Shown here: positions 3,519 to 20,000 of the stretch, one piece after another | How positions within the stretch are numbered: the stretch's first letter is position 1 | How the letters are laid out: the number at the start of each line of letters is the position of its first letter | Virus record (IMG/VR): IMGVR_UViG_3300011429_000010 | Length of the DNA: 20,000 bases | Source: an uncultured virus (IMG/VR IMGVR_UViG_3300011429_000010) | Taxonomy: Duplodnaviria > Heunggongvirae > Uroviricota > Caudoviricetes | Reading direction: 5' to 3' (one strand) | Made by a program: the position numbers and the translations under genes | The notes under the pieces: generated by a model | The model's database searches: none | What the model was told of the DNA's origin: nothing | Seen by the model: only the letters and a program-made list of their open reading frames with translations

Positions 3519-4004
3519 TTACTTGCTCCGCTGAAAATCGGCCGGATCCAATCGGGTAATCGAATCCTTCCACTTGCGCCAATTGGCCACCGTCCGCCGT
3601 GACGCCTGCCAATGGGCCAGACTCCGCGCGCGTTCACGGCTGGCGCCATGGCACAACGTCCGCAAAATCGATTTAGTCTCCACGGGAAAATGGTCCCGAA
3701 TGACGCCGGAGATCAACGGGCCATGGTCGCCATAGGTGGCGAGCGCGAACGTCACGAGGCGAGCGTACGCGCAATCCAGGGTACTGGCTTGCTCCATTGC
3801 CGTATTTGCTTCGGCCAAATGTTGATCCCGTGTCCAGCTGGCGAATTGCGGCAGACGTTTGAACAGCCGATGATCATCCAGAATGGTAATGGAACGCGTC
3901 CAGCCGTGGCACGGTTTGAAGCGTACATCATAAGGCGCGATGTACGGGTGGCCGGCGGTACCGTAGCTAATCGGTTCACTCGGGTTACTTTGATACATGG
4001 CCAT
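3519..4004 (-). CDS. Hypothetical phage protein (161 aa), probably translated from a leaderless mRNA
   Basis: ATG 4004 lies 6 nt after a -10-like box (TAGGAT, 4016-4011). Confidence 0.8.
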   Translation of the reverse strand: MAMYQSNPSEPISYGTAGHPYIAPYDVRFKPCHGWTRSITILDDHRLFKRLPQFASWTRDQHLAEANTAMEQASTLDCAYARLVTFALATYGDHGPLISGVIRDHFPVETKSILRTLCHGASRERARSLAHWQASRRTVANWRKWKDSITRLDPADFQRSK

Positions 4005-4010
4005 GAGATA

Positions 4011-4040
4011 ATCCTACGCCTCAGCTGTTCACGTTGTCAA
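4011..4040 (-). promoter_or_regulatory. Sigma70-type promoter TTGACA-N18-TAGGAT
   Basis: Perfect -35 (4040-4035) and a TAnnnT -10 (4016-4011) in an intergenic gap, with AT-rich sequence upstream. Confidence 0.75.
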
Positions 4041-4042
4041 CT

Positions 4043-4069
4043 AAATAAACCGTCCAGCTTAGTGGCCGG
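4043..4069 (-). terminator. Possible intrinsic terminator after the 4072-4536 gene
   Basis: Minus strand reads CCG-G-CCA-CTAAGC-TGG-A-CGG followed by TTTATTT, just after the stop codon. The stem is imperfect. Confidence 0.35.
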
Positions 4070-4071
4070 CG

Positions 4072-4536
4072 TTACTCGCGGACGATTGCCACCGTCCGCG
4101 TATCGGTCGCATGGTCGTATGTCTCACACACGTTGGCCATTAATACCGTGTGGAATACATCGCCCAGATAATCCTTGATTTGATTACGATTGGGCCCACC
4201 GATGGTAATGTCGATTGTCGCCCAGAGACTTGCACGAATGGTAATCGTGTGGTCCGTCCAGCCGTCGTACATGCCGGATTCGTTCATGTGGTGAAACGGC
4301 GTCGTCAGCACAATCCGCTCGCCATGGGACCGATCCAGGTCAATGGTGGTCCCGCTGTCGATGCCCGATCCGCGTGGCAGGATCTCCCGTTCGATTAGGC
4401 GGAGTAATTCCGTATGCTTGTCCAGCCATTCGCCATTACCCTTCTCCAGACAATTGAGACGTGCTTGGATGGTACTGGCGAGCATGCGGTAACACGGTTC
4501 GGTACGCGTGCGGATCTCGGTTGTCGTTTCGGCCAT
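4072..4536 (-). CDS. Hypothetical phage protein (LPRGSGIDSG...FHHMNESGMYDGWT motif)
   Basis: GGAG SD before ATG 4536. LPxGSGxD and FHHMxxxGxYDGW resemble a phage family of unknown function that I recall as widespread. Confidence 0.85.
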   Translation of the reverse strand: MAETTTEIRTRTEPCYRMLASTIQARLNCLEKGNGEWLDKHTELLRLIEREILPRGSGIDSGTTIDLDRSHGERIVLTTPFHHMNESGMYDGWTDHTITIRASLWATIDITIGGPNRNQIKDYLGDVFHTVLMANVCETYDHATDTRTVAIVRE

Positions 4537-4544
4537 GGTTACTC

Positions 4545-4724
4545 CTAATACCCAATGGTGGCAATACGCCACGCGTTGAAATCTGCTGTGGCTTCTGGGT
4601 TAGCGTCCCAATCTGGCTCGAATCCGCCACGCTGTAACCATTCGAGCAATGCTTGCCGTAATTCGCGTAAACGTGCTGAGTCGGTACATTCCGCTTGCTC
4701 GGCTAGATTGGCGTTTGGATCCAT
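4545..4724 (-). CDS. Small hypothetical phage protein (MDPNANL...WLQRGGFEP)
   Basis: GGAAGGA upstream of ATG 4724. The MDPNA...WLxxGGFxP pattern resembles small phage early proteins (recollection). Confidence 0.8.
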   Translation of the reverse strand: MDPNANLAEQAECTDSARLRELRQALLEWLQRGGFEPDWDANPEATADFNAWRIATIGY

Positions 4725-4887
4725 GGTTGGTAATCCTTCCCTCAGCTGTACATGTACATCAGCATGGCCATTACTGCCAGCATGGCCACACACGAGATCA
4801 CAACGCCGATTAATCGATCTTCCATTAGCTTTTCCACCGTATCACTTTGGCATCGCGCACACAGACACTCCGCGCGGTAACTATGTT

Positions 4888-5136
4888 TCATAGCGGTATG
4901 ACTCTCCAACCTTCGCGATGTTTGCCATTCTTGATTAACACGTCTGCGGCACGCGCACGTGATTTGAACACAAACGCCTGACCGATATTACTTGCGCATT
5001 CCCAGAACACGCCTAAGCCCAAACGGACGTAATATAGATCGCGCGAATCATGGTAAATGACGAAATGGTGTGGTTGGTGTGTGGAAATGGTGCCACTAGC
5101 GCGCGCATCGCCGTCAGCCATACCCTTGTCATCCAT
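4888..5136 (-). CDS. Small hypothetical protein, first gene of the left arm (start 5136 or 5121)
   Basis: ORF directly downstream of the promoter at 5144-5173. The track's 5148 start lies inside the -10 box and is therefore unlikely. Confidence 0.6.
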   Translation of the reverse strand: MDDKGMADGDARASGTISTHQPHHFVIYHDSRDLYYVRLGLGVFWECASNIGQAFVFKSRARAADVLIKNGKHREGWRVIPL

Positions 5137-5143
5137 GCCGGTA

Positions 5144-5173
5144 ACCATATGCTAGAATAACGCCATGCGTCAA
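5144..5173 (-). promoter_or_regulatory. Sigma70-type promoter TTGACG-N18-TATGGT (leftward)
   Basis: -35 at 5173-5168, -10 at 5149-5144; AT-rich UP-element-like tract at 5178-5198. Confidence 0.65.
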
Positions 5174-5351
5174 GCAGATAATGATTAATTAATTAAATGG
5201 GCGTAGTCCAACGTGTGTGCATATTCCCGCCATGGCCCGACATTTACCGATCCATGGGCGGATTAATGGGCGTGTACCATGAATGGTAATTGAATGATCA
5301 TTGAATGGCCGGAGCCGTGGCCATTGACTGGCCATGATTAATTATCCGACT

Positions 5352-5417
5352 CCGCGCGCATCGCCTCCATGCTGCGCGCGCATCGCCTCCATGCTGCGCT
5401 CGCATCGCCTCCATGCT
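5352..5417. repeat. Three tandem 22-bp repeats, consensus GCGCGCGCATCGCCTCCATGCT
   Basis: Copies at 5352-5373, 5374-5395 and 5396-5417 (copies 1 and 3 each have one mismatch); 14-bp partial copy at 5099-5112. Confidence 0.95.
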
Positions 5418-5639
5418 ATGGGACAAGGGTTATGCCAACGGCCGTTACTACCACATCTAGACAGTCCATGTATGAAGGGAATTGTCTAAGGGTGCCCGCC
5501 GGCCAGGGGGGAGAACTAGCGATCTGGTCATACACGTTTTATTTTTTCGAGGCTGTTTTTTATTAGCTGGCACGCTCACGCGGGCCCTTCCCGGTAGCTC
5601 GAAACAACCTCATCAGGTCTGCCCGCCAAGGGCCCCCAC

Positions 5640-5669
5640 TTGACAGCCACGGCAGCTGAGGGCTAAGGT
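5640..5669 (+). promoter_or_regulatory. Sigma70-type promoter TTGACA-N18-TAAGGT (rightward)
   Basis: Perfect -35 at 5640-5645, -10-like TAAGGT at 5664-5669; preceded by inverted repeat GGGCCCTT/AAGGGCCC (5582-5589, 5628-5635). Confidence 0.7.
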
Positions 5670-5763
5670 GGCCAGCAATGACCGCCGGCCGCGTGAATCG
5701 TGCCAGACGCTCGCGCGAGCCCCATCCAAGGCCCGTTTAACCATCAAATCAAGGGATTCCAGC

Positions 5764-6390
5764 ATGTATCACATCTTGCGCGTCATCGGGTTGGGCGAGT
5801 ATCACGTCATTCGCGTGGAAGGACAGCGGGGCGAGCTGGACCGGCGCGGGCAGCCGCAGACCGGCCAGCCCGAGACCCTGGTCGCTGTGCTGACGGAAGA
5901 GGACATGGACGCGATCGGCGAGAGCTATGGCGACTTCAGGCGCGCGCACGAGCACCAGCTGGAGGAAAACAGGCGCGTGGCGGGACGGGTGGGGGTGCCT
6001 TCGGCGGCGAGTCAGGCCGGGCCGGTGCGGCGCACGGGTGATGCGGATTACCCCCAGTCGGCGTGGCCGCGGGCCGAGGCGGCGCGCAAGGCACCGCTGG
6101 CCCAGCCGGGGGCCGTGATCGAGCTGCCGAAAACCGCTCCGCCTTCAGCGGCGGCGCCGGAACCCGTAGGCACGGCGATTCCTGCCGACGTCGCCAAGGA
6201 ACCGGTGCCGATCGCCGGGCAGGCACCGGGGGCTCCAGCACCGGCGCTGTCAGAGGAAGAGGCGGCACGTGTCGCGGCCGAAACGGGTGGCGCCCCTGGT
6301 GTCGAGGCGACCACAGCGCAGGCGGCGGCCAACGCGGTCCCGCCGGGCGACCAGCCACCGCCGGTGCCACAGCGGCGTAGGACCAGCTAG
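5764..6390 (+). CDS. Hypothetical protein with a globular N-terminus and Ala/Pro-rich disordered C-terminus
   Basis: ATG 5764 with AAGGGA upstream; the track's GTG 5668 overlaps the -10 box. Confidence 0.75.
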   Translation: MYHILRVIGLGEYHVIRVEGQRGELDRRGQPQTGQPETLVAVLTEEDMDAIGESYGDFRRAHEHQLEENRRVAGRVGVPSAASQAGPVRRTGDADYPQSAWPRAEAARKAPLAQPGAVIELPKTAPPSAAAPEPVGTAIPADVAKEPVPIAGQAPGAPAPALSEEEAARVAAETGGAPGVEATTAQAAANAVPPGDQPPPVPQRRRTS

Positions 6391-6392
6391 CC

Positions 6393-7481
6393 ATGGCCGA
6401 TGTGCGCGGCACCAAAGCCCATCAGGAGACCGGCGGCCAAGCCGCGGGCGCTGTTCCTCCGGCAGGGGCTCCACATGAAGTGTCGGCGCCCCTGCAGCAC
6501 GATGCCGGCGGGATCATCTTCGCGGACGGCTCGCGGATGACCCCGGCCCAGCGCGCGGCCGAGAATGAACGATCGCTGCAGCCGCTGAAGTTCCAGGGCG
6601 GCCAGACGGCTGGCGGCGTGGCGGAAGCCACGCAGGCGGCGCGCGCAGGCAAAATCGATCCGTTTTACGCGCGGCTGTCGGCGGCGAATGTGCTGGCGGA
6701 CGGCTATAGTGATGTGCTGGACGCGCCGCCGGTGCCGCGCATTCGCCGCGCCACGCGACCGCCTGTGATCCTCACGGACGCGCCAGACGCGCCCGGCGAC
6801 CCGGCGCTCATCGTCCAGCAAATCGACACGGCGACTGGTGGACTGGTGGACGGGACCGAGCTGATCGACGCCGCCGAGGCGCGCGCCAACGCGCAACCCG
6901 CCCAAGTCATTGGCCTGCCCAACGCGGCCACCGCGCCATCGCTGGAGCCGATTGATCTCAAGCGCATGCCGGCGGCCAGCGATACCGATAGCCCCTCGCG
7001 CGGCCAGCCGCGGATCATCGCCAACCCAGACAAAAAGGTCACGGGGGGTTTCTCGGGCGGCGCGGATTTGCAATACTTCGCGCTGGACGGGCAGGAGCTT
7101 CGTGTATTAGTTGAAACGCTGATGGATACTATCTATCAGCGCATTCAAAATGATCTGCGGTTCAGCATGGCGATTACCTATCCGCAAGTGTCGGCGCGCG
7201 TGGTGATCGAAATTCAGGGCTTCGCCAGTGACGTGGCGATCGTCATCGACCAGATTTTGTCGCCGGAGCATCCCGCGCGCTGCAAAAACCCCATCGCGTT
7301 TGCGCGCACGGTCGCCAATGAAATCGCGTTTGTGCTGGTCGAGGAAGCGGCGGAGACCGATGACCAAGGCCAATCGCTGAATCCGCCGGACGCGATCCGC
7401 GACCAATTAGGGCTGACCAAGCCGCGCAAGCAAGTGGTGGGCGTGGGCGCCGGCCGGAGCTGGGTGGATAGCAAAACATGA
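6393..7481 (+). CDS. Hypothetical phage protein (362 aa)
   Basis: Long ORF starting 2 nt after the previous stop; ATGA overlap with the next gene. Confidence 0.85.
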   Translation: MADVRGTKAHQETGGQAAGAVPPAGAPHEVSAPLQHDAGGIIFADGSRMTPAQRAAENERSLQPLKFQGGQTAGGVAEATQAARAGKIDPFYARLSAANVLADGYSDVLDAPPVPRIRRATRPPVILTDAPDAPGDPALIVQQIDTATGGLVDGTELIDAAEARANAQPAQVIGLPNAATAPSLEPIDLKRMPAASDTDSPSRGQPRIIANPDKKVTGGFSGGADLQYFALDGQELRVLVETLMDTIYQRIQNDLRFSMAITYPQVSARVVIEIQGFASDVAIVIDQILSPEHPARCKNPIAFARTVANEIAFVLVEEAAETDDQGQSLNPPDAIRDQLGLTKPRKQVVGVGAGRSWVDSKT

Positions 7482-7669
7482 GTGTCCTCGCGGACGGCCC
7501 TGCCGGGGACGTCCACGTCGTGCCCATTGACGATCTGGAGCCGCACGTGGACGCCCGCGACTGCTGGTGCCATCCGACGCTGGTCCGTGAGCCCGACGCG
7601 GATCGGGCGGTGGTCATTCACCACAGCGCCGATGGCCGCGAGCTGATCGAGGAGCACGGGGTGAATTAG
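7478..7669 (+). CDS. Small putative metal-binding phage protein (H...H...CWCHP...HHSADGRE)
   Basis: His/Cys-rich pattern; coupled by ATGA overlap. Confidence 0.75.
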   Translation: MSVLADGPAGDVHVVPIDDLEPHVDARDCWCHPTLVREPDADRAVVIHHSADGRELIEEHGVN

Positions 7670-7671
7670 TC

Positions 7672-7920
7672 ATGCGCTTTGGCGTCTATCGTAAAATCGC
7701 GGGGCGTACGGGCGTGGGGATGTTGTACCAATTCCTGTTGCTCGCCCGCCATCACACGACCGATGAACAGGTGGTCGTGTACATCCCGTTGCGGATTGAA
7801 CCAGAGTGGGCGGGCACGATTCGCCCGTGCTTCCTGCACCGCGCCACGTTTGACGCCAAGTTTGAATTTGTCAGTGAAGGGTTACCGATCGGAGTGCGCC
7901 ATGAAACGCCGCCTGGATGA
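7672..7920 (+). CDS. DUF1653-like small protein
   Basis: GVYRK...LYQFLLLARH..T.EQVVVY...F..KF resembles the DUF1653 pattern (GxYxHyKGxxYxVxxxAxHxETxExxVVY). Confidence 0.6.
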   Translation: MRFGVYRKIAGRTGVGMLYQFLLLARHHTTDEQVVVYIPLRIEPEWAGTIRPCFLHRATFDAKFEFVSEGLPIGVRHETPPG

Positions 7921-8194
7921 TTTCGCCATGTTGGTGTGCTTGTGGCTGTTCATTATTGAATCTTGGATTCTGGCGACCGGACTCGGCCTGATGACGAGCT
8001 ATTACCGCGCTGGCCGACTGGACGAATTCTGGCAACTGAACGAGATGCCGATCCCGGCGCTGCGCTGGATCGATGCCTACGTTGAAAATTTTCAAATTTT
8101 CGTATTCGTGTGGCTCGGTCTGTGTTATGTGTTCGGTGTGTTCAAGCGGCTGGAGCAACAGGACCATGGCGAAATCGATCATCCGCGGCGTTGA
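7901..8194 (+). CDS. Small membrane protein with two predicted TM helices
   Basis: ATG 7901 with GGAG SD; hydrophobic stretches FAMLVCLWLFIIESWILATGLGLM and FQIFVFVWLGLCYVFGVF. Confidence 0.7.
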   Translation: MKRRLDDFAMLVCLWLFIIESWILATGLGLMTSYYRAGRLDEFWQLNEMPIPALRWIDAYVENFQIFVFVWLGLCYVFGVFKRLEQQDHGEIDHPRR

Positions 8195-8288
8195 TCAACG
8201 CGTGCCCGCGCGGCCGGCGTCGATGCTGGCGCGACCGGGCGATCATCGGCCGACCAATGAGCCGATGCGCAAAATCACCCCCACGTGA
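8166..8288 (+). CDS. Small basic hypothetical protein (40 aa, MAKSIIRGV...)
   Basis: ATG 8166 preceded by GGAG and AGGA; fills the gap before the tad1 leader. Confidence 0.45.
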   Translation: MAKSIIRGVDQRVPARPASMLARPGDHRPTNEPMRKITPT

Positions 8289-8359
8289 CGGCAGCGGGCC
8301 GTGCGCGTGCCGCACAGAGGATCGAGGCGATAACCCTCGCGGGCAGCCCTTGAGGTATT

Positions 8360-8737
8360 ATGGATAGAGAGCTTATCGACCACCACGACGGCCACGGATT
8401 AACAGAGTCCATCAAAATTCTCGCTGACGAGCCGGGGCCGGGCGGCGCCTCCCATCGCTATTTGATCCAGGTCGAGGCGCCGGACGGCCAGAAATTCGCG
8501 GTCGGCGAGATTCAATTTCAAAAGGGCCCGCGGAATGTGGAAGGGTCCACGCCGGGTGTGGTCGAATCGGCGTTGCTGGCGATTGTGGTGGATCGCATGC
8601 GCAGCTTTAACAGCGGCGAGCTGCGCAACCGGCAGAATGCGCTCGTGCAGACCAAGTGTGAAGAGGCCATCCATTGGTTGCGCGACCGCGCCGACGAGCG
8701 TGCGCGGCGGGGCGTGCTGGGGACCATGAACAAATGA
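8360..8737 (+). CDS. tad1: Tad1-family anti-defence sponge protein (Thoeris anti-defence 1; sequesters immune signalling nucleotides)
   Basis: 125 aa with the Tad1 motifs in order: GPGGAxHxY, IQFQKGPR, GV...LLAIVVDRMRSF, RQNA...TKCEEAIHWLRDR..ERARRGVLGT, ending in NK. SD GAGG upstream. Confidence 0.9.
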   Translation: MDRELIDHHDGHGLTESIKILADEPGPGGASHRYLIQVEAPDGQKFAVGEIQFQKGPRNVEGSTPGVVESALLAIVVDRMRSFNSGELRNRQNALVQTKCEEAIHWLRDRADERARRGVLGTMNK

Positions 8738-9093
8738 ACCGACGTGTTTTCAGTCAGACGCTCGCGGCCGTGCTGACCGCCCTTGCGTGGCCGTGGTCGG
8801 CCTCGGCCGCGCGGCCCGTCCCCGTCATCACCGGTGTCGCCCCCGGTATCGACTGGACGGCGTGGAATCAGATCGCGCGCCGTGTTGATGCACACGGCGT
8901 GTCCACGTGGTTCATCAACGGGATGCAGGTAGACGGCCCGCACAATATCCCATGGCAGGCGCTGGCATGGTTGAAAGATCCCACGCCGGGGACGTGGACA
9001 CAATTCAACATGAAAATTCGTCGTATGCCGGGGAGTGTTTGTACCGACCACACCGATTACGTCAACATTGACGACGCCGTGGTGTGGGACTGA
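8734..9093 (+). CDS. Putative Tat-exported protein
   Basis: ATGA-coupled to tad1. N-terminus MNRRVFSQTLAAVLTALAWPWSASA has RRxF, a hydrophobic h-region and an AxA cleavage-like site. Confidence 0.65.
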   Translation: MNRRVFSQTLAAVLTALAWPWSASAARPVPVITGVAPGIDWTAWNQIARRVDAHGVSTWFINGMQVDGPHNIPWQALAWLKDPTPGTWTQFNMKIRRMPGSVCTDHTDYVNIDDAVVWD

Positions 9094-9347
9094 TGCACCA
9101 CCACGGCATTCCCATTCTCGATTTAGAGGTTGTCCAGGTCATGGCCCATGTCGTTCGTTCCATCACCATCGACGCGAAAGAAATCCTCGACGTCACCTGG
9201 GAGGAACGCAACGCCGCCGGACAGGTGATCGAACGCTATGTGACACGCATCACTCGGCCGCCCGTGGACGTCCGCAAGGCACGCACCGGCACGGACATGG
9301 CGCCGGTCGATCATGACCCAGGATCGATCCGTGCCGTCACCGGGTAA
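9093..9347 (+). CDS. Hypothetical protein (MHHHGIPILDLEVVQ...)
   Basis: TGATG overlap with the previous stop; beta-rich protein-like sequence. Confidence 0.65.
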   Translation: MHHHGIPILDLEVVQVMAHVVRSITIDAKEILDVTWEERNAAGQVIERYVTRITRPPVDVRKARTGTDMAPVDHDPGSIRAVTG

Positions 9348-9522
9348 GGCCCGTCGAGGATTCGCTGCCATGACCAAGGCTCAGCATCGCGCCATTGCCC
9401 GCAAAGGGGGGTTGGTGCGGGCCGATCGCCACACCGGCCATGAATGGCGGGCAGAGGATGGATCCGCCGCGCGGGCAGGCCGCAAGGGCGGATTAGCGTG
9501 TGCCGAAAAGAAAGGAAAATGA
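9313..9522 (+). CDS. KGG-repeat stress-induced protein family (YciG/YmdF/GsiB-like)
   Basis: RRGFAAMTKAQHRAIARKGG...HEW...AARAGRKGG matches the RGFAxM...R.IAxKGG / AREAGRKGG repeat. Confidence 0.8.
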   Translation: MTQDRSVPSPGKARRGFAAMTKAQHRAIARKGGLVRADRHTGHEWRAEDGSAARAGRKGGLACAEKKGK

Positions 9523-9731
9523 TCATGCCTCCGTTTCAACTTGTGCGCTCCACCGCGCAACGCAAAAAGTTATTCGCGCTCGCCGACCGTGGGGAAATCA
9601 GCAAGGACGAGGCTGAAGGTAAGGCGCGCGCCGCCAAGGGGCGTGATCTGCCGGAGTATGTCAAGGCTGCGCCGAAACCCAAACGCGTGAAATCACGCGG
9701 CGCGTTTGGCCGTCCGCTGACTGGGCGTTGA
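9519..9731 (+). CDS. Small basic phage protein (S.AQRKKLFALADRGEISK...LPEYVK)
   Basis: AAAGGA SD and ATGA overlap (start 9519 or 9525). Resembles the small phage protein pattern MPFKSxAQRR...RGEIS...LPExV (recollection). Confidence 0.8.
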   Translation: MIMPPFQLVRSTAQRKKLFALADRGEISKDEAEGKARAAKGRDLPEYVKAAPKPKRVKSRGAFGRPLTGR

Positions 9732-9733
9732 TC

Positions 9734-9907
9734 ATGGGCATGGGATTCAAACAAGGTGGGCACGTCGGCCTTGGGCCACCCCCGCCCAAACATAATCGCA
9801 ATATCGAAAAGGCGCGCGGGCCGTTGGTGCGCGCGGAACACAAGGCCATGCCCAAGATCACCGGTGCGCTGAGGAACAAAGGCCGCTCACGTCGCGTGGG
9901 GCGGTAA
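9734..9907 (+). CDS. Small basic hypothetical protein (57 aa, MGMGFKQGGHVGLGPPPPK...RSRRVGR)
   Basis: Translated by hand (below the track's cutoff); exactly fills the gap between the stop at 9731 and ATG 9909. Confidence 0.65.
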   Translation: MGMGFKQGGHVGLGPPPPKHNRNIEKARGPLVRAEHKAMPKITGALRNKGRSRRVGR

Positions 9908-9908
9908 C

Positions 9909-10283
9909 ATGCCATGGACGTCACAAGCCCAATTGGATCGGATCGAGGCCAAACTGGACCAGTTACTGGCGAGCCTCGCCGCGGCCGGGGTCGCCCTCGT
10001 GGCTCCAAAAATCATGCCCCGCACGCGCGGCCCCCTGTCCCAGATGGTCCCGGCGCGCAAGCGCACGGCGGCGGACGTCCAGATCATGAATCGGGAGGCG
10101 CGGCTGGAACGACAACAGCGCGACCGGGAACAACAGGCCAGCCCGCGTGGCGCAAGTACTGGCCCCTCGACCCCTACAAACCCATCCCCGACGAGTCCGA
10201 TCCCTTCGCCGATCTCCGGCCCCTCTATTACACCCCGCCCAGAGACCAGCGACACATCCGCCGGACCCGAGACACCATCCTAA
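9909..10283 (+). CDS. Hypothetical coiled-coil protein overlapping the next ORF
   Basis: ATG 1 nt after the upstream TAA; QLDRIEAKLDQLL heptad pattern and REARLERQQRDREQQ helix. The C-terminal third is Ser/Pro/Thr-rich and may be an overlap tail. Confidence 0.55.
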   Translation: MPWTSQAQLDRIEAKLDQLLASLAAAGVALVAPKIMPRTRGPLSQMVPARKRTAADVQIMNREARLERQQRDREQQASPRGASTGPSTPTNPSPTSPIPSPISGPSITPRPETSDTSAGPETPS

Positions 10284-11086
10284 CGCGGAGTGATATTACC
10301 CACACGATTTCTCCGACCGGGGCGGTGGATCAGGTCACACGGGCGGCGCTGGACAACGCCCCCGAAGACGTCCGCCTCGCCGCTGCCGAACTGGTCGCCC
10401 AACAAAAAATCCTCAAGGACCGTGCGAAGGCGCTGGGCATCCCATCCACGGAATTCGCCCACACATTAGGATTTATTACCCGCAAGATGGAAGGCGGGCG
10501 CGAGCGGTTCATTCAATTCGTGGCGCTCGGCGCGTCCATCGGCGATGAGGACTGCCGGCGGTTCCTGCACGCGTACGAGGAATTACCCAAGTGGCAACAG
10601 AAAAGCCGCATTGGGCTGGATTTGCTGGCGCTGTCGATTGGGATCCAGCCCGTGACGATTCTCAGGGCTGTCGTCGGCGTGGCGTTTGAGGCCCAGGTGG
10701 ACGCCGCCCGCATGATCGCGCTGGCCTCGCAGCCCGACGTCATGTCGGCGGCGGTGGAATCGGCCAAGCGGCTGGATTCGCAGATTGGTTTGCGGGATCG
10801 GCATGCGTTGCTGCAGTCAGCGGGCGTGCTACCGACACCCAAGGGATCCACGATCAATATTGGCGTCACCGCCAACGCCCAAGCCCAGTCCACGGCCGCT
10901 GCCGCTGCCGCCTCCAGCTCGCCGAATATTCCCTCGTTCGTGGCGGATATGGATGTGGTGTCCGGCGTGCGCGAGACGGTCCAGCGGCAGTTGCTCACCG
11001 AAGGTGTGGCGCCGGAGCCCTTAATCTTTACCGATCAGGAGCGCGAACACGCGCCGATCGACGTGAACCCGTCAGCTGTGGAGTAA
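9914..11086 (+). CDS. Putative terminase small subunit / DNA-binding protein (start uncertain)
   Basis: 390-aa ORF just upstream of terL; AT-hook-like RRGRGRPRGSKN, helical core, C-terminal TINIGVTAN beta-strand. The TerS assignment rests mainly on position. Confidence 0.55.
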   Translation: MDVTSPIGSDRGQTGPVTGEPRRGRGRPRGSKNHAPHARPPVPDGPGAQAHGGGRPDHESGGAAGTTTARPGTTGQPAWRKYWPLDPYKPIPDESDPFADLRPLYYTPPRDQRHIRRTRDTILTRSDITHTISPTGAVDQVTRAALDNAPEDVRLAAAELVAQQKILKDRAKALGIPSTEFAHTLGFITRKMEGGRERFIQFVALGASIGDEDCRRFLHAYEELPKWQQKSRIGLDLLALSIGIQPVTILRAVVGVAFEAQVDAARMIALASQPDVMSAAVESAKRLDSQIGLRDRHALLQSAGVLPTPKGSTINIGVTANAQAQSTAAAAAASSSPNIPSFVADMDVVSGVRETVQRQLLTEGVAPEPLIFTDQEREHAPIDVNPSAVE

Positions 11087-11089
11087 CAC

Positions 11090-11377
11090 ATGAATGACAA
11101 AATCGCCCGGATAGTCGGCAAGGTCGTCACCACGTTGATTCTGACCGGCGCCCGCACGGCGACCGCGTACGTCAGCCCGACGCATACCGTCCGTGCGTGC
11201 CAACGGCGTATCCGTGGACGCGTCCCGCGGCATCCCCGGCGGTTTGATGTGAACCTGACGATCGGGACGCCGAATTACCGATCGCGGCAATTCATCAAAA
11301 AGGCACAGCGCGCGGGCGAACCATTTCCCATCAAGCGTGTCCAACTCACGTACGTTCACGTTCACGCTCGTGCGTAG
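11090..11377 (+). CDS. Small basic hypothetical phage protein (95 aa)
   Basis: GGAG SD; sits between the TerS candidate and terL with 3-nt gaps. Confidence 0.75.
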   Translation: MNDKIARIVGKVVTTLILTGARTATAYVSPTHTVRACQRRIRGRVPRHPRRFDVNLTIGTPNYRSRQFIKKAQRAGEPFPIKRVQLTYVHVHARA

Positions 11378-11380
11378 CCC

Positions 11381-13642
11381 ATGTATGACCACCGTGTGAC
11401 GTCCCTCGCGATTGAGGCGGCCAGCGCCAAACAAGGTTGGGCGCTGGTGTACCACACGCCCGCCCAGATTGACGAAGCCATTCATCATTTCGCGCCGCTG
11501 TGGAACGCGGAGCGCCAGGATTTCATCCGCCCGCTGGTCGCCGCCGAACAGCGGTTCATTCAAAATGAACGCACGCTGTGCGCGCTCGATTACCGTTATT
11601 GGCTGCAGTACGTCCATATCATCGGGTGGGACAAAAAGGACGTCATTTTCATCCCCAACATTGCCCAGGAAATCATCCTCGAAATCTGGGGCGAGGCCGA
11701 AGCCAAAGGGCTCGCCATCATCTGCATGCTGCTCAAGGCGCGGCAGCTCGGGATGACGACCGAAGTGGAATTAGCGGTCCTTCACCGGTTCCAATTCTAC
11801 CCGCGCACGTACGCGGTGGTCGCCAGCGCCGACCCAGACAAAACCGTCGAAATGGCGAAGATGATTCATTACGCCATTCAGCGCCAGCCGTGGTGGCTAC
11901 TGCCCAAGGCCACAAAAATCTCCCGCGGCATGCCGGTCGAATTCGGCGAGATTAATTCCACGCTCGCCGCCCAGTGGGGTAACCAGTATCACGGCGTGGC
12001 GCGCGGGCGCACCCCCAACGTGTTCCACTTGACCGAAGTCAGCTCGTGGAACAACGCCGAGGACGATATCGACGCCGCATTATTCAAGGCCATGCACGCC
12101 ACGCCGGACGTCTTCGGCTGTCTCGAATCGACCGCCATGGGCCGCAACAACTGGTGGCATGACGAGTGGCAGCTGATGATCGCGGAGTATCCAGCCGGTC
12201 GATCACTCATTCGCCCGATTTTTCTGCCCTGGTTCGTTGGCCTTGATATTTACCCGACGCCGGCTGACTTGCGCGCACGGCCCGTCCCCGGCGACTGGAT
12301 TCCGCTCGATCGCACGATTCGCCACGCGGAGCGCGCCCGGCAGGCGGTCCTGTCCAACCCGCTCTGGATGAAACACGTGGCCAAGGGCCAGTCCAACTGG
12401 CAGATGCCCCGCGAGCAAATGTGGTATTACGAGATCGAACGTGAATTAGCCGTCAAGAAAAAGGCCGTGAATAAGTTCTTGGGTGAAATGCCGGCCGATG
12501 ATCAGGAAGCGTTCCAGAACACGTTGATCTCGGTGGTGGACCAGGACGTCATTTTGGATCTGCGTGAGCGGGCGCTGGCCAATCACCCGCTGGGCGTGTA
12601 CACAGTGGTCGGATCCACCATTCACCAGACATTGGTGGTCCCGCGATCACATTGGGATCTCTCGCAGCCGATTATTCCCATCCGTCCGGCGGATATCTCG
12701 CGCACGATCAACGAAACCTATCAATTCGTCCCGGTGGAATTCCAAGGCTACACCGCCTATGATCCCACATGGAAATTGTTCATCTGGGAATGGCCGAAGC
12801 CGGGGGAGACCTACGGCGTGGGCTTGGACACCAGCGATGGGATCGGGCAGGACTGGTGTGTCATCGAAGTTTTCCGCAAGGGCGACAGCCAGCGCGCGCA
12901 CGCGCAGGTCGCTGAATTCGCCTCGCCGTACATCAAGGCCAACCAGATTTGGGAACAGCTTTTAGCCATCGCCACGTTCTACAGCGTGTACAACTTCCGC
13001 GCCAAAAAGCGTACCCAATGCCGCGTGTGCATCGAATGCAAGGGCAATGGCGAAAAAGCGCAGGACGAGCTGAAAAAACGCGGCTGGGTCAATTTCCACC
13101 CGTGGAAACGTCTCGACAACCGCAAGCGCCTGACCAACGATCAAGTCCACAAGGAAGGGATTTTCACTAATGTCTGGTACCGCGCGCGTCTTATGGACAC
13201 GCTCCTTACGGCGGTGGACGAGGATTCGGTGGATATCAATTCCCCGTGGCTGGTGGGGGAATTGGAGACCTTGGAACGAGATCCCGAATTGGCGTCGGCC
13301 CGTGCCGCCTACGGTTGCCACGATGACCGCGTTATGTCCTTTGGCTTCCCGCTCGAATCCCTCACCGTGGATGACCGGCCCGGCATGGTCAGCAACACCG
13401 GCAGCAAGTTTCGCCGCAATGTGCCGCAGTACCTGCCAGACGCCGTGGGACAGTCCACGAACAACCACGTTGAAATTTACGCCAGTTACCCGGTCCCGCT
13501 CCAGGCTCGCAGCGACGTCACCCACCGATCTGGGATTCCACTGGAGCGAAGGCCCACGATTCTTGGTCAGGTCGGACGGTCAGGCGGACGGTACCGATTA
13601 GGGTCGTATAAAAATCCCCAATTAGCTAAGGTGCTCCGGTAA
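11381..13642 (+). CDS. terL: Terminase large subunit
   Basis: Walker A-like LLKARQLGMTT, Walker B FHLTEV, motif III ESTAMG, and RNase H-like nuclease motifs GVGLDTSDGIGQD, CIECKGNG and HDDRVMS. Confidence 0.95.
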   Translation: MYDHRVTSLAIEAASAKQGWALVYHTPAQIDEAIHHFAPLWNAERQDFIRPLVAAEQRFIQNERTLCALDYRYWLQYVHIIGWDKKDVIFIPNIAQEIILEIWGEAEAKGLAIICMLLKARQLGMTTEVELAVLHRFQFYPRTYAVVASADPDKTVEMAKMIHYAIQRQPWWLLPKATKISRGMPVEFGEINSTLAAQWGNQYHGVARGRTPNVFHLTEVSSWNNAEDDIDAALFKAMHATPDVFGCLESTAMGRNNWWHDEWQLMIAEYPAGRSLIRPIFLPWFVGLDIYPTPADLRARPVPGDWIPLDRTIRHAERARQAVLSNPLWMKHVAKGQSNWQMPREQMWYYEIERELAVKKKAVNKFLGEMPADDQEAFQNTLISVVDQDVILDLRERALANHPLGVYTVVGSTIHQTLVVPRSHWDLSQPIIPIRPADISRTINETYQFVPVEFQGYTAYDPTWKLFIWEWPKPGETYGVGLDTSDGIGQDWCVIEVFRKGDSQRAHAQVAEFASPYIKANQIWEQLLAIATFYSVYNFRAKKRTQCRVCIECKGNGEKAQDELKKRGWVNFHPWKRLDNRKRLTNDQVHKEGIFTNVWYRARLMDTLLTAVDEDSVDINSPWLVGELETLERDPELASARAAYGCHDDRVMSFGFPLESLTVDDRPGMVSNTGSKFRRNVPQYLPDAVGQSTNNHVEIYASYPVPLQARSDVTHRSGIPLERRPTILGQVGRSGGRYRLGSYKNPQLAKVLR

Positions 13643-14217
13643 TGCCCTTGTACGATCTCGCGTGCCAGTCCTGTGGTCGGCAATTCGAACATTTTATTCC
13701 ACTGACGCTGTACCCCACGACACCGCCGTGTCCCACGTGTGGAGAACCCACGATCCGCGAATTACTCCCACCCGTCAACCGCCGCGCCACCCCTGACGCC
13801 GTGGTGGTCTATCGCGCGCCAGACGGCTCATTCCGCTTCCCCGGTGACACCGGCGGGATCTCGGCCGGCAAGTACGAGCGCATGGGCTACGAACGGATTG
13901 AAGCGCGAGGCCACGCGGAAGTCCGGCGCCTCGAAAAGCGCCTGAACACCCACGAAACCAGTCAAATGGCCCGCTTAGCTGAGCATCAGGCCGCGCGCCG
14001 CGAGCACGGAGAGACCTTGCGCCGCAGCGAACTTCGCGCTAGGATGCAGTCCATGTCGCGCGAGGGACGTGATCTCGCGCGGGCCGTGATCAACCGGAAC
14101 AACGCCAAACCCGTGCGCGTCGTGCGGAATCCCGGCCTGCACGTTGACGTCTATTCGAACGACCGCGGCAACCGGGATGAGTCACGCGACCGTCGCGGCA
14201 AACGCTTCAGGGATTAG
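13642..14217 (+). CDS. FmdB-like zinc-ribbon domain protein
   Basis: MPLYDLACQSCGRQFE...CPTCG (MPxYxxxCxxCG...CPxCG); TAATG coupling with terL; Arg-rich helical C-terminus. Confidence 0.85.
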   Translation: MPLYDLACQSCGRQFEHFIPLTLYPTTPPCPTCGEPTIRELLPPVNRRATPDAVVVYRAPDGSFRFPGDTGGISAGKYERMGYERIEARGHAEVRRLEKRLNTHETSQMARLAEHQAARREHGETLRRSELRARMQSMSREGRDLARAVINRNNAKPVRVVRNPGLHVDVYSNDRGNRDESRDRRGKRFRD

Positions 14218-14245
14218 GGCTCGCGCCCAGCCCTACAGGTGATCC

Positions 14246-14668
14246 ATGACCATTCGTGTCGAGCACCACCACTATTTCCATGTCGATTCTGACGATAGCG
14301 TGCGCCAGAAACTCGATTCCATCATCACGCTGTTAGCTGGTCTGAAACACCAGGAGGAAGCCGAAATGACCCGACTCGATGATCTCAAAGTCAAGCTCCA
14401 GACCCTCAGCGACGACGTGGCGGCCGAAACCAACATCGTGGAAGCCGCCAAGATTGCGATCGACGGGCTGATCGCGTCCAACGAGGAACTTCGTCAGCAG
14501 CTCGAAAACCAGGGCGTGCCCCAGGAAGTCCTCGATCTCGTGGACGCGACCATCGCCGCCCAGAAGGCCCAGCGCGAGCGGCTGGCCGCGGCCATCCCGG
14601 CTGGCACGCCGGCTGTTCCGGCGCCGCCCGCGGAAGGCACCGGGTTGTCCACCGACGCCAAGTCGTAA
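14246..14668 (+). CDS. Coiled-coil phage protein (possible internal start at 14366)
   Basis: AGGTG upstream of ATG 14246; heptad-rich sequence; strong AGGAGG SD before internal ATG 14366. Confidence 0.8.
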   Translation: MTIRVEHHHYFHVDSDDSVRQKLDSIITLLAGLKHQEEAEMTRLDDLKVKLQTLSDDVAAETNIVEAAKIAIDGLIASNEELRQQLENQGVPQEVLDLVDATIAAQKAQRERLAAAIPAGTPAVPAPPAEGTGLSTDAKS

Positions 14669-14695
14669 GCGTTTCTCAGTTGGGAGGACTCGCGC

Positions 14696-16804
14696 ATGTC
14701 GCAATATCAAATTCCCCGGTTCGGTTCCACTAACGACCAGATCGCGGGATACATGCGCGAGGCCACCCAGCAGGGGGAGGCATGGCTGGCGACCCAGCGG
14801 CCGTCCAGCGAGTGGATGAGCATTATCGAGCGCCTGTCCGCGTCCATTCCCCAAGCCGAGTTATCCGGGCAGTCCAACGCCACCTACAACAAAACCGAAC
14901 GAGTGGCGCGTGAATTAGTCGCGTCCCTAGGATCCTTCGCGCACGACGGTGAATTCAAACCCAGTAGCGACAAAAAACTCTACAACCAAGCCGGCGCGCT
15001 GACCAAGCTCGATCGCCACTGGAATAACCAGGAAGACGTGTATTTGACGCAACGCGCGGGCCTGCAGTACGGCATCGCGCTCGGGACCGGTTATCTGGGC
15101 TGCGAGTGGGACAAACATTACCACGGCATGTACAAAGGCGATATCCGCCTGACGGCCTACGCGCCAGACCGCGTGACCTTTGTCCAATTGCCTTCTGACA
15201 ACGATATCCAGCGCGCGTACATCGTGCTGATCAAACACGAACTCCCGATCACCTTCGCCAAGCGCGTCTACGCTCAGACCAATCCCGCCTTCGCGGCGGC
15301 GCTGCAGCCTGACCGCTCCGCCCCCGGCTGGATTTCCAAGGGTCTGCGCAAGGTGCAGGAATTTCTCTCACCCGCGTTGCGCGTCCGCGGCACGCGCCCC
15401 GGCGACGTCGCCGAAGCGTCATTCCCTACGTGTGACATTTTCCACGCGTACATCATGGACGATGCCGTCAACGATATCGGTATTAATCGTCAGATGGGCG
15501 CCATGGGGACGAATTGGTCGTACCAAGTCCCGTCACTGGGCGATCCGATCAACATGGGGATCATGAACCCGGCGACCGGCCAGAATTTCACCCGTCCCGC
15601 CGAACCATCTGACTGCGCATTGTTTCCCTTGCGGCGCCTCGTCATCTTCGCGCGCTCGACCGACATTATCGCCTACGATGGCAGCTCACCGTGGTGGCAC
15701 GGCATGGTCCCGCTCGCGCGCTTCCGGTTCAACGACTGGCCCTGGGAAGCCCTCGGCCGCTCCTGCGTAGGCATGATCGGCTCCTTAGACGATTCCATGA
15801 ATAACATCTTCCGCGGGATGGAAGATTCGATCGCGGTGCGGCTGGATCCCCCCGTCCTGTACAACGACCAGATGGTCAGCCAATCATTCGCGGAGGCGTT
15901 CAATCCACGTAAGGCGGGCGTGCGCGCGGCGGCGAACCTGGACGGCGGCAAGGTGCTGGAATTCCCGGTGCCCCCTGGTCAGTACGACGTCGGCTCGTGG
16001 ATCCCTGAACATCTGCGGTATCTGGATGACCGCGCGGAATATTTAACGGGTGTGCGCGATCTCACCGCCATCGCCAAGGCCAAGCAATTACCCTCTGGCG
16101 ATTCCATCGAAAAGTTATTGGAAATGGCCGGCCCGCTGACGCAGGACATGGTCCGCGCCATTGTCGGCCCGCTTCGCCAGCTCGGTGAAATGCGCAAAGC
16201 CTATTATTTCCAATTCTACACCTACCAGCGGATTTTGCAGGCGTCCGACGCCACCGGGCAACCCGAAGATTGGCTGTACACGCCCGATCAACTGGTCAAC
16301 ACGATCGAGGGCGAGCCGATTGCCCAGCGCCAGAACCGCGCACGGCAATTGTTGTCGGAATTCACCTACAGCGTGACGCAATCCGGCATTTCGGAAATCA
16401 ACCGGATGACCACCAAGCTGTTTTACGCGCAGTTATTGAAATTGGGCTTCCCACTCGATTGGTGGACGTTCGCCAAGATCGCCCAGATTTCGAATTTCGG
16501 GCCCGAACCCGAAGAAACCCACAACGTCATGGAGCGGTGGATCGCCCAGCAACACATCCAGGCCGAGATCCAGGCGAATCTCCAGGAAGAAATGGCCATG
16601 TCCGCCGCCGAGACCGCGGCGAAAACCGGTGGGCTCGGGGCACCGGGCACGGGCGGGCCTCCCGCACCGGGGGGCGAGGGCGGTGGGGGTGGTCCCGCTG
16701 GTCCGGCAGGCCCCAAGCGTCCCGGCCGACCGTCTTCGTTCAACGCGCCGCCCAAATTGGTCAGTAAAGACGGCGGTGAACGCTCGACTATGACCACGTC
16801 ATGA
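14696..16804 (+). CDS. Portal protein
   Basis: 702 aa between terL and the scaffold/capsid genes; strong GGGAGGA SD. Portal-like segments include GIALGTGYL (GTG), wing beta-region, GRSCVGMIGSLDDSMN, EYLTGV, then a Gln-rich and a Gly/Pro-rich tail. Confidence 0.85.
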   Translation: MSQYQIPRFGSTNDQIAGYMREATQQGEAWLATQRPSSEWMSIIERLSASIPQAELSGQSNATYNKTERVARELVASLGSFAHDGEFKPSSDKKLYNQAGALTKLDRHWNNQEDVYLTQRAGLQYGIALGTGYLGCEWDKHYHGMYKGDIRLTAYAPDRVTFVQLPSDNDIQRAYIVLIKHELPITFAKRVYAQTNPAFAAALQPDRSAPGWISKGLRKVQEFLSPALRVRGTRPGDVAEASFPTCDIFHAYIMDDAVNDIGINRQMGAMGTNWSYQVPSLGDPINMGIMNPATGQNFTRPAEPSDCALFPLRRLVIFARSTDIIAYDGSSPWWHGMVPLARFRFNDWPWEALGRSCVGMIGSLDDSMNNIFRGMEDSIAVRLDPPVLYNDQMVSQSFAEAFNPRKAGVRAAANLDGGKVLEFPVPPGQYDVGSWIPEHLRYLDDRAEYLTGVRDLTAIAKAKQLPSGDSIEKLLEMAGPLTQDMVRAIVGPLRQLGEMRKAYYFQFYTYQRILQASDATGQPEDWLYTPDQLVNTIEGEPIAQRQNRARQLLSEFTYSVTQSGISEINRMTTKLFYAQLLKLGFPLDWWTFAKIAQISNFGPEPEETHNVMERWIAQQHIQAEIQANLQEEMAMSAAETAAKTGGLGAPGTGGPPAPGGEGGGGGPAGPAGPKRPGRPSSFNAPPKLVSKDGGERSTMTTS

Positions 16805-17058
16805 TCGATCTCGATCGCACCCTGCGCACGCATCTGGCGCCCAGCGAATTGGCGGAAATCCTCGGGATTTGCCGTCGAGCCGTGTACCACCGCATCAGCC
16901 GGAACCGCGTCCGCTACGACGTGGGCAAGTACGGCGGCTGGCGCATCCCACTTGACGAGTGTAAACGGTTGCGGGACATGGAATTAGGCATTACCATTCC
17001 GGAGAAATCCACGCCCGTGCCCGCGGACACCGTGCAATCTCGCGCAAAATCCCACTGA
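16801..17058 (+). CDS. Helix-turn-helix DNA-binding protein (Xis/MerR-like, HTH_17 type)
   Basis: LAPSELAEILGICRRAVYHRI...GGWRIP pattern; ATGA overlap with the portal gene. Confidence 0.8.
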   Translation: MIDLDRTLRTHLAPSELAEILGICRRAVYHRISRNRVRYDVGKYGGWRIPLDECKRLRDMELGITIPEKSTPVPADTVQSRAKSH

Positions 17059-17064
17059 TTTTCC

Positions 17065-17094
17065 TCGACAGCTTCGCCAATTCCCCCCTACGCT
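17065..17094 (+). promoter_or_regulatory. Putative promoter TCGACA-N18-TACGCT for the head genes
   Basis: One mismatch from TTGACA; TAnnnT -10; same 18-nt spacer as the other promoters; intergenic. Confidence 0.55.
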
Positions 17095-17130
17095 GATCGC
17101 CATTACCGTTATTCGGTTGGAGGGTGTTAC

Positions 17131-17211
17131 ATGGCGAAACCCGGCAAGGGCGGCAAGAAAACCGGCAGCGGCAAAGTGCGAACGACCATGAATCGGCCCT
17201 TCGGCCGGTGA
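17131..17211 (+). CDS. 26-aa Lys/Gly-rich microprotein MAKPGKGGKKTGSGKVRTTMNRPFGR
   Basis: Strong GGAGGG SD before ATG 17131; first ORF after the putative promoter. Confidence 0.65.
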   Translation: MAKPGKGGKKTGSGKVRTTMNRPFGR

Positions 17212-17241
17212 TGCTCGCGCATCAGCCCGCTTTCTAAGCAC

Positions 17242-17559: not shown

Positions 17560-17711
17560 CCGGGAGTATCAGCATCGGGCTTGTCGCGCTCCTCGCAGTC
17601 CTCGCGCTCGTGACCGCGTGGCTCAGCGCATTGACCCCGCCAAAGGCTCCCGGTTGGGTGGCCATTGTGCTGCTTGCTCTCGCAATTCTGATCATGGCGG
17701 TCCCAAAATAA
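17556..17711 (+). CDS. 51-aa two-TM membrane microprotein MTGSISIGLVALLAVLALVTAWLSALTPPKAPGWVAIVLLALAILIMAVPK
   Basis: Translated by hand; ATGA-coupled; two hydrophobic helices joined by a PPKAPG turn. Confidence 0.7.
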   Translation: MTGSISIGLVALLAVLALVTAWLSALTPPKAPGWVAIVLLALAILIMAVPK

Positions 17712-17742
17712 AATGTCGCAACGTGTCCGATCCCTCGTGATT

Positions 17743-18876: not shown

Positions 18877-20000
18877 ATGGACCCGAATGTTGCTGAACTG
18901 AATGCGGTCACGTTATTCGAAATTTATCCCAAGACGATTGAGGATGAATTTTTCCTTGCCGCGCCACTGCTCGCGTACTTCCGTGACCATTGTCTGGTCC
19001 CCTTCACCGGTGGATCATTCATGCAGGCGCCGTTCCGGTACGCCCCGCTGATCGGCGGCTTCTACGCGCCGGGCGCCGGCTTCAACACCATCAAGCGCAC
19101 GACCATCGCGGCGCTGCAATTCGACACGCGGTACGCCTACGTGTCCATTCCTGAATACAAGGAAGAAATTCAGGTCGAGCAAAAGGGTGAATTGGCCGTG
19201 GCCAGTCTCCTCGACGCCGACATGCAGAACGGCATGGACACGATCAACGCCATCTACGCGGTGGCGCTGGCCCAGTCCGGTCAGGGCGTCCGGTCCCTCG
19301 CGGTCAACGGCTGGTCGGAAATCATCAACGACGGCATTACCCCGAGCTGGGACGGCAACATCTACACCAGCTACGGCCTCCAGCTGCGCAACGGCGCCAT
19401 CGGTTCGGTCCTGAATTCCATCCCCGTGTACTGCGGTGACGCGCTGGGCAACCCCGGCGTGGCCGACTATTCGGTGTACGAGGAAGGCTACCAGGACGCC
19501 ACGATCGGCAAAAAGGAACCGAACCTGATGTGCGCCAACAAGGCGGCCATCGCGTACGTCAAGGAAAAGCTGGTCGTCCAGCAGCGATTCCAGCAGGAGC
19601 GCGATCCGGTCTGGGGCGTCATGGGCTTCCGCTTCAACAACGCCATGGTGCTGAAGGACGATTATTTTCCGTCCCTGAAGTACGGGCAGGTTGACCCGGT
19701 CCTGGGCAGCTGGCGTACCGGCACCTTCGTCTCGCCCGGCACCACCGCCAACGGCGGCACTGCGGCGGCGACGTCGAATCTCCCAGTCGCCGGCACCGTC
19801 GTCACGGTCGGCGAAGTCGTGGCCATGTTCAACACTTTCGATTTCCTGTTCCGGGTGACCGACAACGAGGAATTCGGCTTCGGCTTCTCAGGCTTCGTCC
19901 CCGCGCAGGACAACACCAAGGTCGTCGGCCAAGTCAAGGCCATGGCGAACGTCGAAAACATTTCGCCGCGCACCCAGAAACAGTTCTACGGGATCGGCGG
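18877..20000 (+). CDS. Major capsid protein (HK97-fold, putative); stop lies just beyond the window
   Basis: Translated by hand: ATG 18877 with GGAAGGA SD, open for 374 codons to the edge (MDPNVAELNAVTLFEIYPKTIEDEFFLAAPLL...EPNLMCAN...QQRF...GFRFNNAMVLKDDY...SPRTQKQFYGIG). Position after the scaffold, size and motifs fit a capsid protein. Confidence 0.88.
   Translation, partial: MDPNVAELNAVTLFEIYPKTIEDEFFLAAPLLAYFRDHCLVPFTGGSFMQAPFRYAPLIGGFYAPGAGFNTIKRTTIAALQFDTRYAYVSIPEYKEEIQVEQKGELAVASLLDADMQNGMDTINAIYAVALAQSGQGVRSLAVNGWSEIINDGITPSWDGNIYTSYGLQLRNGAIGSVLNSIPVYCGDALGNPGVADYSVYEEGYQDATIGKKEPNLMCANKAAIAYVKEKLVVQQRFQQERDPVWGVMGFRFNNAMVLKDDYFPSLKYGQVDPVLGSWRTGTFVSPGTTANGGTAAATSNLPVAGTVVTVGEVVAMFNTFDFLFRVTDNEEFGFGFSGFVPAQDNTKVVGQVKAMANVENISPRTQKQFYGIG

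Follow-up and report, generated by a model that had tools for sequence, protein, structure and literature searches.

Described Tad1 proteins

The closest described relative of the protein analysed here is CbTad1 from a Clostridium botulinum prophage (PDB 7UAV, 7UAW, 8SMD, and 8KBE–8KBH). Eleven CbTad1 residues are named as gcADPR contacts in the Leavitt preprint (F82, R109, N92, R57, R113, G120, F87, H29, G55, R78, and N122), of which F87 braces the ribose of the adenosine and N122 contacts a ribose hydroxyl. According to the preprint of Li et al., the exchanges F82A/N92A and R109A/R113A abolish binding of gcADPR and 2',3'-cGAMP, and R90A or T97A lower the binding of cA3. The guanine of 2',3'-cGAMP is described there as sandwiched between L13 and L119 and additionally contacted by Q8. 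The same preprint reports that dinucleotide spectra differ between Tad1 homologs and that 12% and 6% of Tad1 orthologs are substituted in the site for dinucleotides and gcADPR or in that for trinucleotides, respectively. ColiTad1 from Colidextribacter sp. OB.20 (L054) was found to bind cA3/cAAG and cADPR isomers (Li et al. preprint).

A Tad1-family anti-Thoeris protein linked to the head has been described in a phage of a Gram-negative host. This protein, gp184/Tad1 of phiKZ, is reported to be capsid-associated and to be processed by the head protease. Its N-terminus is wedged in the capsid, whereas its C-terminal part, once freed, is reportedly injected. A broader survey by Hadary et al. 2025 (PMC12393519) gathered 1,587 non-redundant Tad1 homologs, tested 20 of them, and described new specificities that evolved in sister sponge families.

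The tad1 gene and its product

The window, i.e., the whole stretch of 20,000 nucleotides from an uncultured virus of the Caudoviricetes (IMG/VR IMGVR_UViG_3300011429_000010), contains an open reading frame with a plausible translation start.

8360..8737, + strand: tad1 coding sequence, 125 amino acids plus TGA stop (ORF list, phmmer, PHROG, AF2, Foldseek)
8352..8355, + strand: GAGG, likely ribosome-binding site, 4 nt before the tad1 ATG, as read from the sequence

The original prediction had named the product a full-length Tad1, and this was confirmed by sequence and structure searches. Compared by phmmer with all PDB chains, the 125-amino-acid protein had CbTad1 as its best match (E 1.8e-21, query residues 24–124) and also matched CmTad1 (E 4.8e-8); only Tad1 rose above noise, with the next match at E 0.4. 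PHROG 2428, a family of unknown function, was matched at E 5.4e-20. An AlphaFold2 model built from 40 relatives (mean pLDDT 93.7, pTM 0.83) placed strands at residues 3–5, 18–22, 33–39, and 45–53 and helices at 69–85 and 91–116, and it has the Tad1 fold, in which an N-terminal antiparallel beta-sheet precedes two long C-terminal helices (AF2, Foldseek). In a Foldseek search against the PDB, the best match was 8smd_B, which is CbTad1 with 1''-3' gcADPR (TM 0.85, rmsd 2.0, 37% identity, 126 columns). Twenty matches were obtained at E ≤ 0.001, all of them Tad1 chains among the matches listed, and the next fold followed at E 0.15.

Over the full length, the protein is 37–38% identical to CbTad1 (TM 0.84–0.85) and shares with it the beta-sheet and two-helix fold, whereas it carries a two-residue insertion after E16 and a different beta2–beta3 loop. 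ColiTad1 (123 amino acids) is 38% identical and has the same conserved binding residues. It differs by the canonical segment FQAGPFSCRENA, by the N-terminal stretch TIQKHDNLN, and by a match to the Pfam model PF24729.2 (Acb2/Tad1 hairpin) of 33.9 bits. The local version of this model also scored a C. sporogenes homolog (24.7 bits) and one relative of the protein (P0014, 19.7 bits), whereas the tad1 protein itself was unmatched even at E ≤ 10, and searches of NCBIfam and the local Pfam were empty. A precomputed PF24729.3 label is attached to an identical protein (P0001) and to most of the best 120 of 215 relatives. Judged by its sequence, the helical hairpin that contains the segment singled out in the original prediction really is atypical for the older model PF24729.2. 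Membership in Tad1 rests on much stronger evidence than the Pfam result.

On sequence and structural model, the product of 8360–8737 is a genuine, ordinary, full-length Tad1 sponge. Our main reading, to which a probability of about 85% is assigned, is that an uncultivated phage of about 60–70 kb, the nearest cultured relatives of which infect Acidobacteriota, encodes a Tad1 sponge that is canonical and stands alone. The identical protein is present on six contigs, the longest of which has 68,513 bases.

By homology to the described proteins, the tad1 protein would assemble as a hexamer, a trimer of dimers. The type I Thoeris signal, 1''-3'/1''-2' gcADPR, would be sequestered in six pockets where the subunits of the dimers meet, possibly along with cyclic dinucleotides, whereas cA3 and other cyclic trinucleotides would be bound in two further pockets along the three-fold axis. 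Effectors of the ThsA type and of CBASS would be starved of their activating signal.

Ligand-binding residues

The alignment to CbTad1 could be used directly for residue mapping because all residue numbers quoted in the papers are recovered when it is numbered on the 124-residue chain. Nine of the eleven published gcADPR contacts are identical, namely H32, G56, R58, R79, F83, N93, R110, R114, and G121 (H29, G55, R57, R78, F82, N92, R109, R113, and G120 in CbTad1, gcADPR/cGAMP), and two are changed, F87 to L88 and N122 to M123. All four residues validated by mutagenesis for gcADPR and dinucleotide binding are kept (F83, N93, R110, and R114), as are both cyclic-trinucleotide residues (R91 and T98, equivalent to R90 and T97 for cA3) and both residues of the cGAMP base sandwich (L14 and L120, equivalent to L13 and L119). 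From CbTad1 to the tad1 protein, the changes comprise Q83>N, P86>E, F87>L, S89>N, E91>Q, N122>M, and, in the alignments of the N-terminus, Q8>H9. CbTad1 Q83, P86, and E91 are absent from the contacts named in the texts of the Leavitt and Li et al. preprints. Of the four substitutions that the original prediction had listed, only the exchange of F to L88 concerns a published contact, and the second changed contact, M123, had been missed.

8726..8728, + strand: codon for M123, opposite CbTad1 N122 (alignment and published contact list)

Conservation was assessed in a pool of 343 sequences, consisting of 262 proteins and 81 ORFs from fetched loci; three of 265 proteins were left out as they had fewer than 90 filled columns. 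Within this pool, G56, R110, R114, and G121 are conserved at 99% and F83 at 97%. Position 123 is highly variable and ranks 103rd of 125 columns, with N in 37% and M in 7.8%. A second set of 151 rows was made up of the query and the best 150 of 2,090 cluster representatives. Here, the residues at position 123 included N (42), Y (19), S (16), M (15), L (15), and H (12). The number of identical contacts in these rows was 9 in 48, 10 in 34, 11 in 19, and fewer in 50, so the mode is 9 of 11, the value of the tad1 protein, and R91 and T98 were both retained in 93 of the 151 rows. ColiTad1 is likewise devoid of N at the position equivalent to 122 and has T there.

Interface positions of CmTad1 were transferred by the offset of +2 to CbTad1 that is stated in the Li et al. 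preprint (R88 to R90, T95 to T97). Identity was found for R91, T98, K99, E102, and W106, and differences were found at Q98 (E101), M102 (H105), and K106 (D109).

The N-terminus has a motif of its own.

8381..8401, + strand: N-terminal motif H8-H-D-G-H-G-L14, with H9 opposite Q8 and L14 opposite L13 (ColiTad1 alignment)

HHDGHGL stands in place of the QKHDNL stretch of ColiTad1 and spans the positions that contact the second cGAMP base in CbTad1. Among the best 120 of 215 relatives, the motif is nearly invariant, with H8, D10, and L14 in 120 of 120 and G11 in 119.

The segment at residues 83–94

A shift of ligand specificity had been proposed in the original prediction from one segment of the protein.

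8606..8641, + strand: segment FNSGELRNRQNA, residues 83–94, comprising the end of helix 1, the loop, and the start of helix 2 (AF2, sequence)

The segment FNSGELRNRQNA aligns to FQAGPFSSRENA in CbTad1 (PDB 7UAV/7UAW/8KBx) and to the canonical ColiTad1 segment given above; F83, R91, and N93 are conserved, and N84, E87, L88, N90, and Q92 are substituted. The template FQxGPFxxRENA, given in the original prediction together with the substitutions Q>N, P>E, F>L, and E>Q, was correct with respect to both CbTad1 and ColiTad1. Its description as normally conserved applies to positions 84 and 92, whereas position 87 is variable and position 88 is split between F and Y. In the pool of 343 sequences, position 84 is Q in 86% (19th most conserved of 125 columns) and position 92 is E in 84% (25th); among the 30 most conserved columns, the tad1 protein is non-consensus at these two alone. 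Position 87 is P in 57%, and position 88 is aromatic, F in 46% or Y, with L in 4.7%. The combination N84/E87/L88/Q92 was found in one of the 343 sequences, which is the tad1 protein alone.

Each single substitution recurs among relatives. Of 233 candidates from a word-index search, 215 reached E ≤ 0.001; the best 120 of these are 53–70% identical to the tad1 protein. Among these 120, position 84 was Q in 84 and N in 29; position 87 was P in 74, E in 29, and D in 10; position 88 was Y in 81, F in 35, and L in 4; and position 92 was E in 107 and Q in 11. The 151 rows gave a similar list, with Q (132) or N (9) at position 84, P (88) or E (24) at 87, F (75), Y (55), or L (10) at 88, and E (114) or Q (14) at 92. 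N84, E87, and R89 mark the protein's own subclade because the nearest relatives read FNAGEYRCRENA, FNAGDYRCRENA, or FNAGEFRCRQNA in the segment.

Each change in the segment is conservative and recurrent, and the ligand-binding columns are canonical. The segment is mainly a subclade signature that surrounds the conserved ligand-binding residues and does not replace them. A shifted specificity deduced from this segment is not supported, as the residues validated by mutagenesis are kept, a single one of the named substitutions lies at a contact, and the substitutions recur.

Published catalogue and tested homologs

The tad1 protein is already known, as its exact sequence is contained in a published survey, where it is catalogued only. 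Hadary et al. 2025 (PMC12393519) list the string FNSGELRNRQNA three times in the sheet 'homologs_Tad1' of their Table S1, at least two of these rows being the identical 125-residue protein, which was classed there as Tad1 by HHpred against 7UAW. The string is absent from Table S2 of the same study, which holds the tested proteins. The exact motif HHDGHGL occurs 13 times in Table S1 and not once in Table S2, and the HHDGHGL subclade appears to lie outside the tested set of Table S2.

For type I Thoeris, eight entries are scored y/y/y among 17 of the 19 Tad1 rows of Table S2. The position of M123, taken by eye to lie two residues past the conserved Gly in V-[LEY]-G, is N, E, Y, S, H, S, N, and Y in these eight rows. 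One of them, homolog no. 46, has an apparent Leu at the position of L88, again by eye. Given these eight rows and the Thr of ColiTad1 at the position of N122, variation at both changed contacts is, by analogy with the tested homologs, experimentally tolerated for inhibition of type I Thoeris.

The family is very large: 2,090 cluster representatives were counted at E ≤ 0.001, of which 545 reached E ≤ 1e-10. As it stands, the protein is one more Tad1 in this family and matters little.

Genome neighbourhood

Downstream of tad1 and on the same strand lie three genes that identify the surroundings as those of a phage.

11381..13642, + strand: terminase large subunit (TerL); tblastn 29.7% identity over 86% to Tunturiibacter phage Tunturi_1, E 3e-64; PHROG 5989, E 3.4e-4
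14696..16804, + strand: portal protein; tblastn 26.9% identity over 714 columns to the annotated portal of Tunturi_1, E 2.6e-62
18877..19998, + strand: major head protein, running off the window; tblastn E 2e-30 to Tunturi_1; PHROG 9953, E 5.3e-7

PDB sequence searches with TerL, the portal, and the major head protein were empty at E ≤ 0.01. Between the large terminase and the portal, a 191-amino-acid ORF (13642–14217, + strand) has an N-terminal Zn_ribbon_8 domain (PF09723, E 6.3e-11).

A strand switch is located at about 4.6–5.6 kb in the window, and tad1 is part of a block of small ORFs between this switch and TerL. The layout of Tunturi_1 is parallel, with a strand switch, about 4 kb of small ORFs on the same strand, and then TerL; a Tad1 match was not obtained in Tunturi_1 by tblastn. 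The original prediction had placed tad1 on the packaging arm rather than the early arm. The gene does lie on the same strand, 2.6 kb upstream of TerL, but such a position is common and silent on timing. A census covered the 45 loci that had 5 kb or more on either flank; for each, the three ORFs of at least 130 amino acids closest to Tad1 (135 proteins) were compared with PHROGs at E ≤ 1e-5. Head-and-packaging matches were found at 16 of the 45 loci, with the large terminase at 9, and top matches to DNA metabolism and to lysis genes were found at 8 and 2 loci, respectively. Tad1 beside packaging genes is common, since 16 of 45 related loci have such neighbours. Scans of positions 4000–11500 for consensus promoters and terminators gave 3 versus 1.9 and 6 versus 6.3 in shuffled sequence, with none near tad1, and because these counts are at shuffled background, no statement on the timing of expression is possible.

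None of the ten flanking ORFs of the window had a homolog near Tad1 in 84 fetched loci, and tad1 is a free-standing accessory gene. A fixed operon partner had also been considered and was dropped, as no flanking ORF recurs in these loci. Directly downstream, an ORF overlaps tad1.

8734..9093, + strand: ORF of 119 amino acids, with its ATG overlapping the tad1 stop (ATGA); the N-terminus MNRRVFSQTLAAVLTALAWPWSASA resembles a Tat/Sec signal peptide by eye

For this ORF, family searches were empty, and a homolog beside Tad1 was found in 0 of the 84 loci.

Some further ORFs near tad1 have features of their own. Just 5' of tad1, the ORF at 7679–8194 (+ strand) has long hydrophobic stretches and is possibly a membrane protein; searches of PHROGs, Pfam, and NCBIfam with it were empty. 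Positions 6001–7000 have a GC content of 0.727 compared with about 0.60 elsewhere, which corresponds to the Ala/Gly/Pro-rich N-terminal half of the ORF at 6393–7481 (+ strand, 362 amino acids, no family match). At 9313–9522 (+ strand), a putative basic ORF of 69 amino acids contains the KGG-like motifs ARKGGL and GRKGGL and overlaps ORFs in other frames.

Alternative readings

Which dinucleotides the tad1 protein binds cannot be predicted from its sequence because the spectrum differs even among characterised Tad1 proteins. One alternative is a pocket that has been retuned. In such a reading, the side of the pocket that faces the ribose–ribose linkage would be altered by L88 and M123, with a possible contribution from N84, Q92, and the lid residue H9, so that another signal is preferred over 1''-3'/1''-2' gcADPR. 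A retuned Tad1 would keep the adenine and phosphate clamps, and its ligand might be, for example, another TIR-derived ADPR derivative or a different cyclic dinucleotide. Two published ribose contacts, F87 and N122, are indeed altered, and the differing spectra of Tad1 homologs (Li et al. preprint) as well as the specificities newly evolved in sister sponge families (Hadary et al. 2025, PMC12393519) also count in favour of this reading. The two changes also tend to occur together: among 332 sequences with both columns filled, M123 is present in 7 of 14 sequences with L88 versus 19 of 318 others (naive Fisher p 1.9e-5), and the closest genome-borne homolog, from a Blastocatellia MAG, has L88/M123 and an identical C-terminus, GVLGTMNK. 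In a FastTree phylogeny built without columns 88 and 123, L88 changed 12 times and M123 changed 23 times, and the joint state required at least six origins. However, a tree-aware sign test on independent pairs was non-significant (median p 0.25 with 262 rows and 0.5 with 332 rows), although this test is underpowered, as 0.05 is unreachable with so few informative pairs, and the tree of 125 residues is weakly supported. Since the naive association is strong and the tree-aware tests are non-significant, the co-occurrence of L88 and M123 is a lead only. Moreover, position 123 is among the most variable columns, type I Thoeris is still blocked by tested homologs that have E, Y, S, or H there and by one with an apparent L at position 88 (both by eye, Table S2), and the contacts to adenine and phosphate and the other ribose contacts are unaltered, all of which makes a retuned pocket unlikely. 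In a related proposal, the recurrent pair L88/M123, accompanied here by N84, Q92, and the invariant HHDGHGL lid of a mostly soil-borne subclade, would define a distinct Tad1 pocket variant that reads another ribose linkage or TIR/CD-NTase product than gcADPR. This is quite unlikely in our estimate; if true, Acidobacteriota and similar hosts would use an immune signal that has yet to be characterised. Positions 88 and 123 and the N-terminal motif could serve as handles for choosing Tad1 variants in binding screens.

A protein with a Tad1 fold might also have ceased to act as a soluble sponge and have become virion-associated or structural, or its gene might be a decaying accessory gene. The position of tad1 in a block leading into packaging genes would fit a virion role, as would the annotation of Bacillus phage homologs as 'putative structural protein' and the capsid association reported for gp184/Tad1 of phiKZ. 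Against this, the tad1 protein is a bare Tad1 of 125 residues that is devoid of an N-terminal extension, and even in phiKZ the Tad1 part, given its reported injection, acts as a sponge. The phiKZ entry was unmatched by the tad1 protein in PDB sequence and fold searches. Also against this, the binding residues are intact, of which R110, R114, G121, and G56 occupy columns conserved at 99%, the AF2 model is confident and compact, and the identical protein occurs on six contigs. Loss of the sponge function in either form is therefore regarded as very improbable, and the canonical stand-alone sponge is the preferred reading.

Host and distribution

TerL, the portal, a 310-amino-acid protein, and the major head protein are 25–30% identical to those of Tunturiibacter phages and occur in the same gene order. 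A DNA-level match to positions 9900–17800 was not obtained in the phage collection, and by its sequence, the phage is very distant from cultured phages. An acidobacterial host is a reasonable guess and no more, because Tunturiibacter and Blastocatellia both belong to Acidobacteriota. That the host lineage uses nucleotide-signalling immunity, as the original prediction had stated, is a reasonable generic inference. The tad1 protein is a modest hint that signalling of the Thoeris or CBASS type is encountered by relatives of the phages of soil Acidobacteria.

Compared with the source of CbTad1, the phage is GC-rich and probably has a Gram-negative soil host. The original prediction had attached weight to this contrast with Firmicutes phages, but it is not special, as Tad1 is found in phages of Gram-negative hosts and in many phyla. 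By tblastn, Tad1 was detected in 74 phage records, among them phages of Xanthomonas, Agrobacterium, Rhizobium, Vibrio, Pseudomonas, and Klebsiella, and 80 genome loci include Acidobacteriota, Planctomycetota, Verrucomicrobiota, Bacteroidota, Spirochaetota, Cyanobacteria, and Proteobacteria. A scan of viral contigs with the single protein returned two distant loci only.

The closest genome-borne Tad1 (53% identity, in the region L003 4556-8354) is encoded on a 7.9-Mb contig of the Blastocatellia MAG, directly 3' of a terminase-like gene of 755 amino acids. It has lost both trinucleotide-site residues (R91>A and T98>K), and L88 and M123 are kept.
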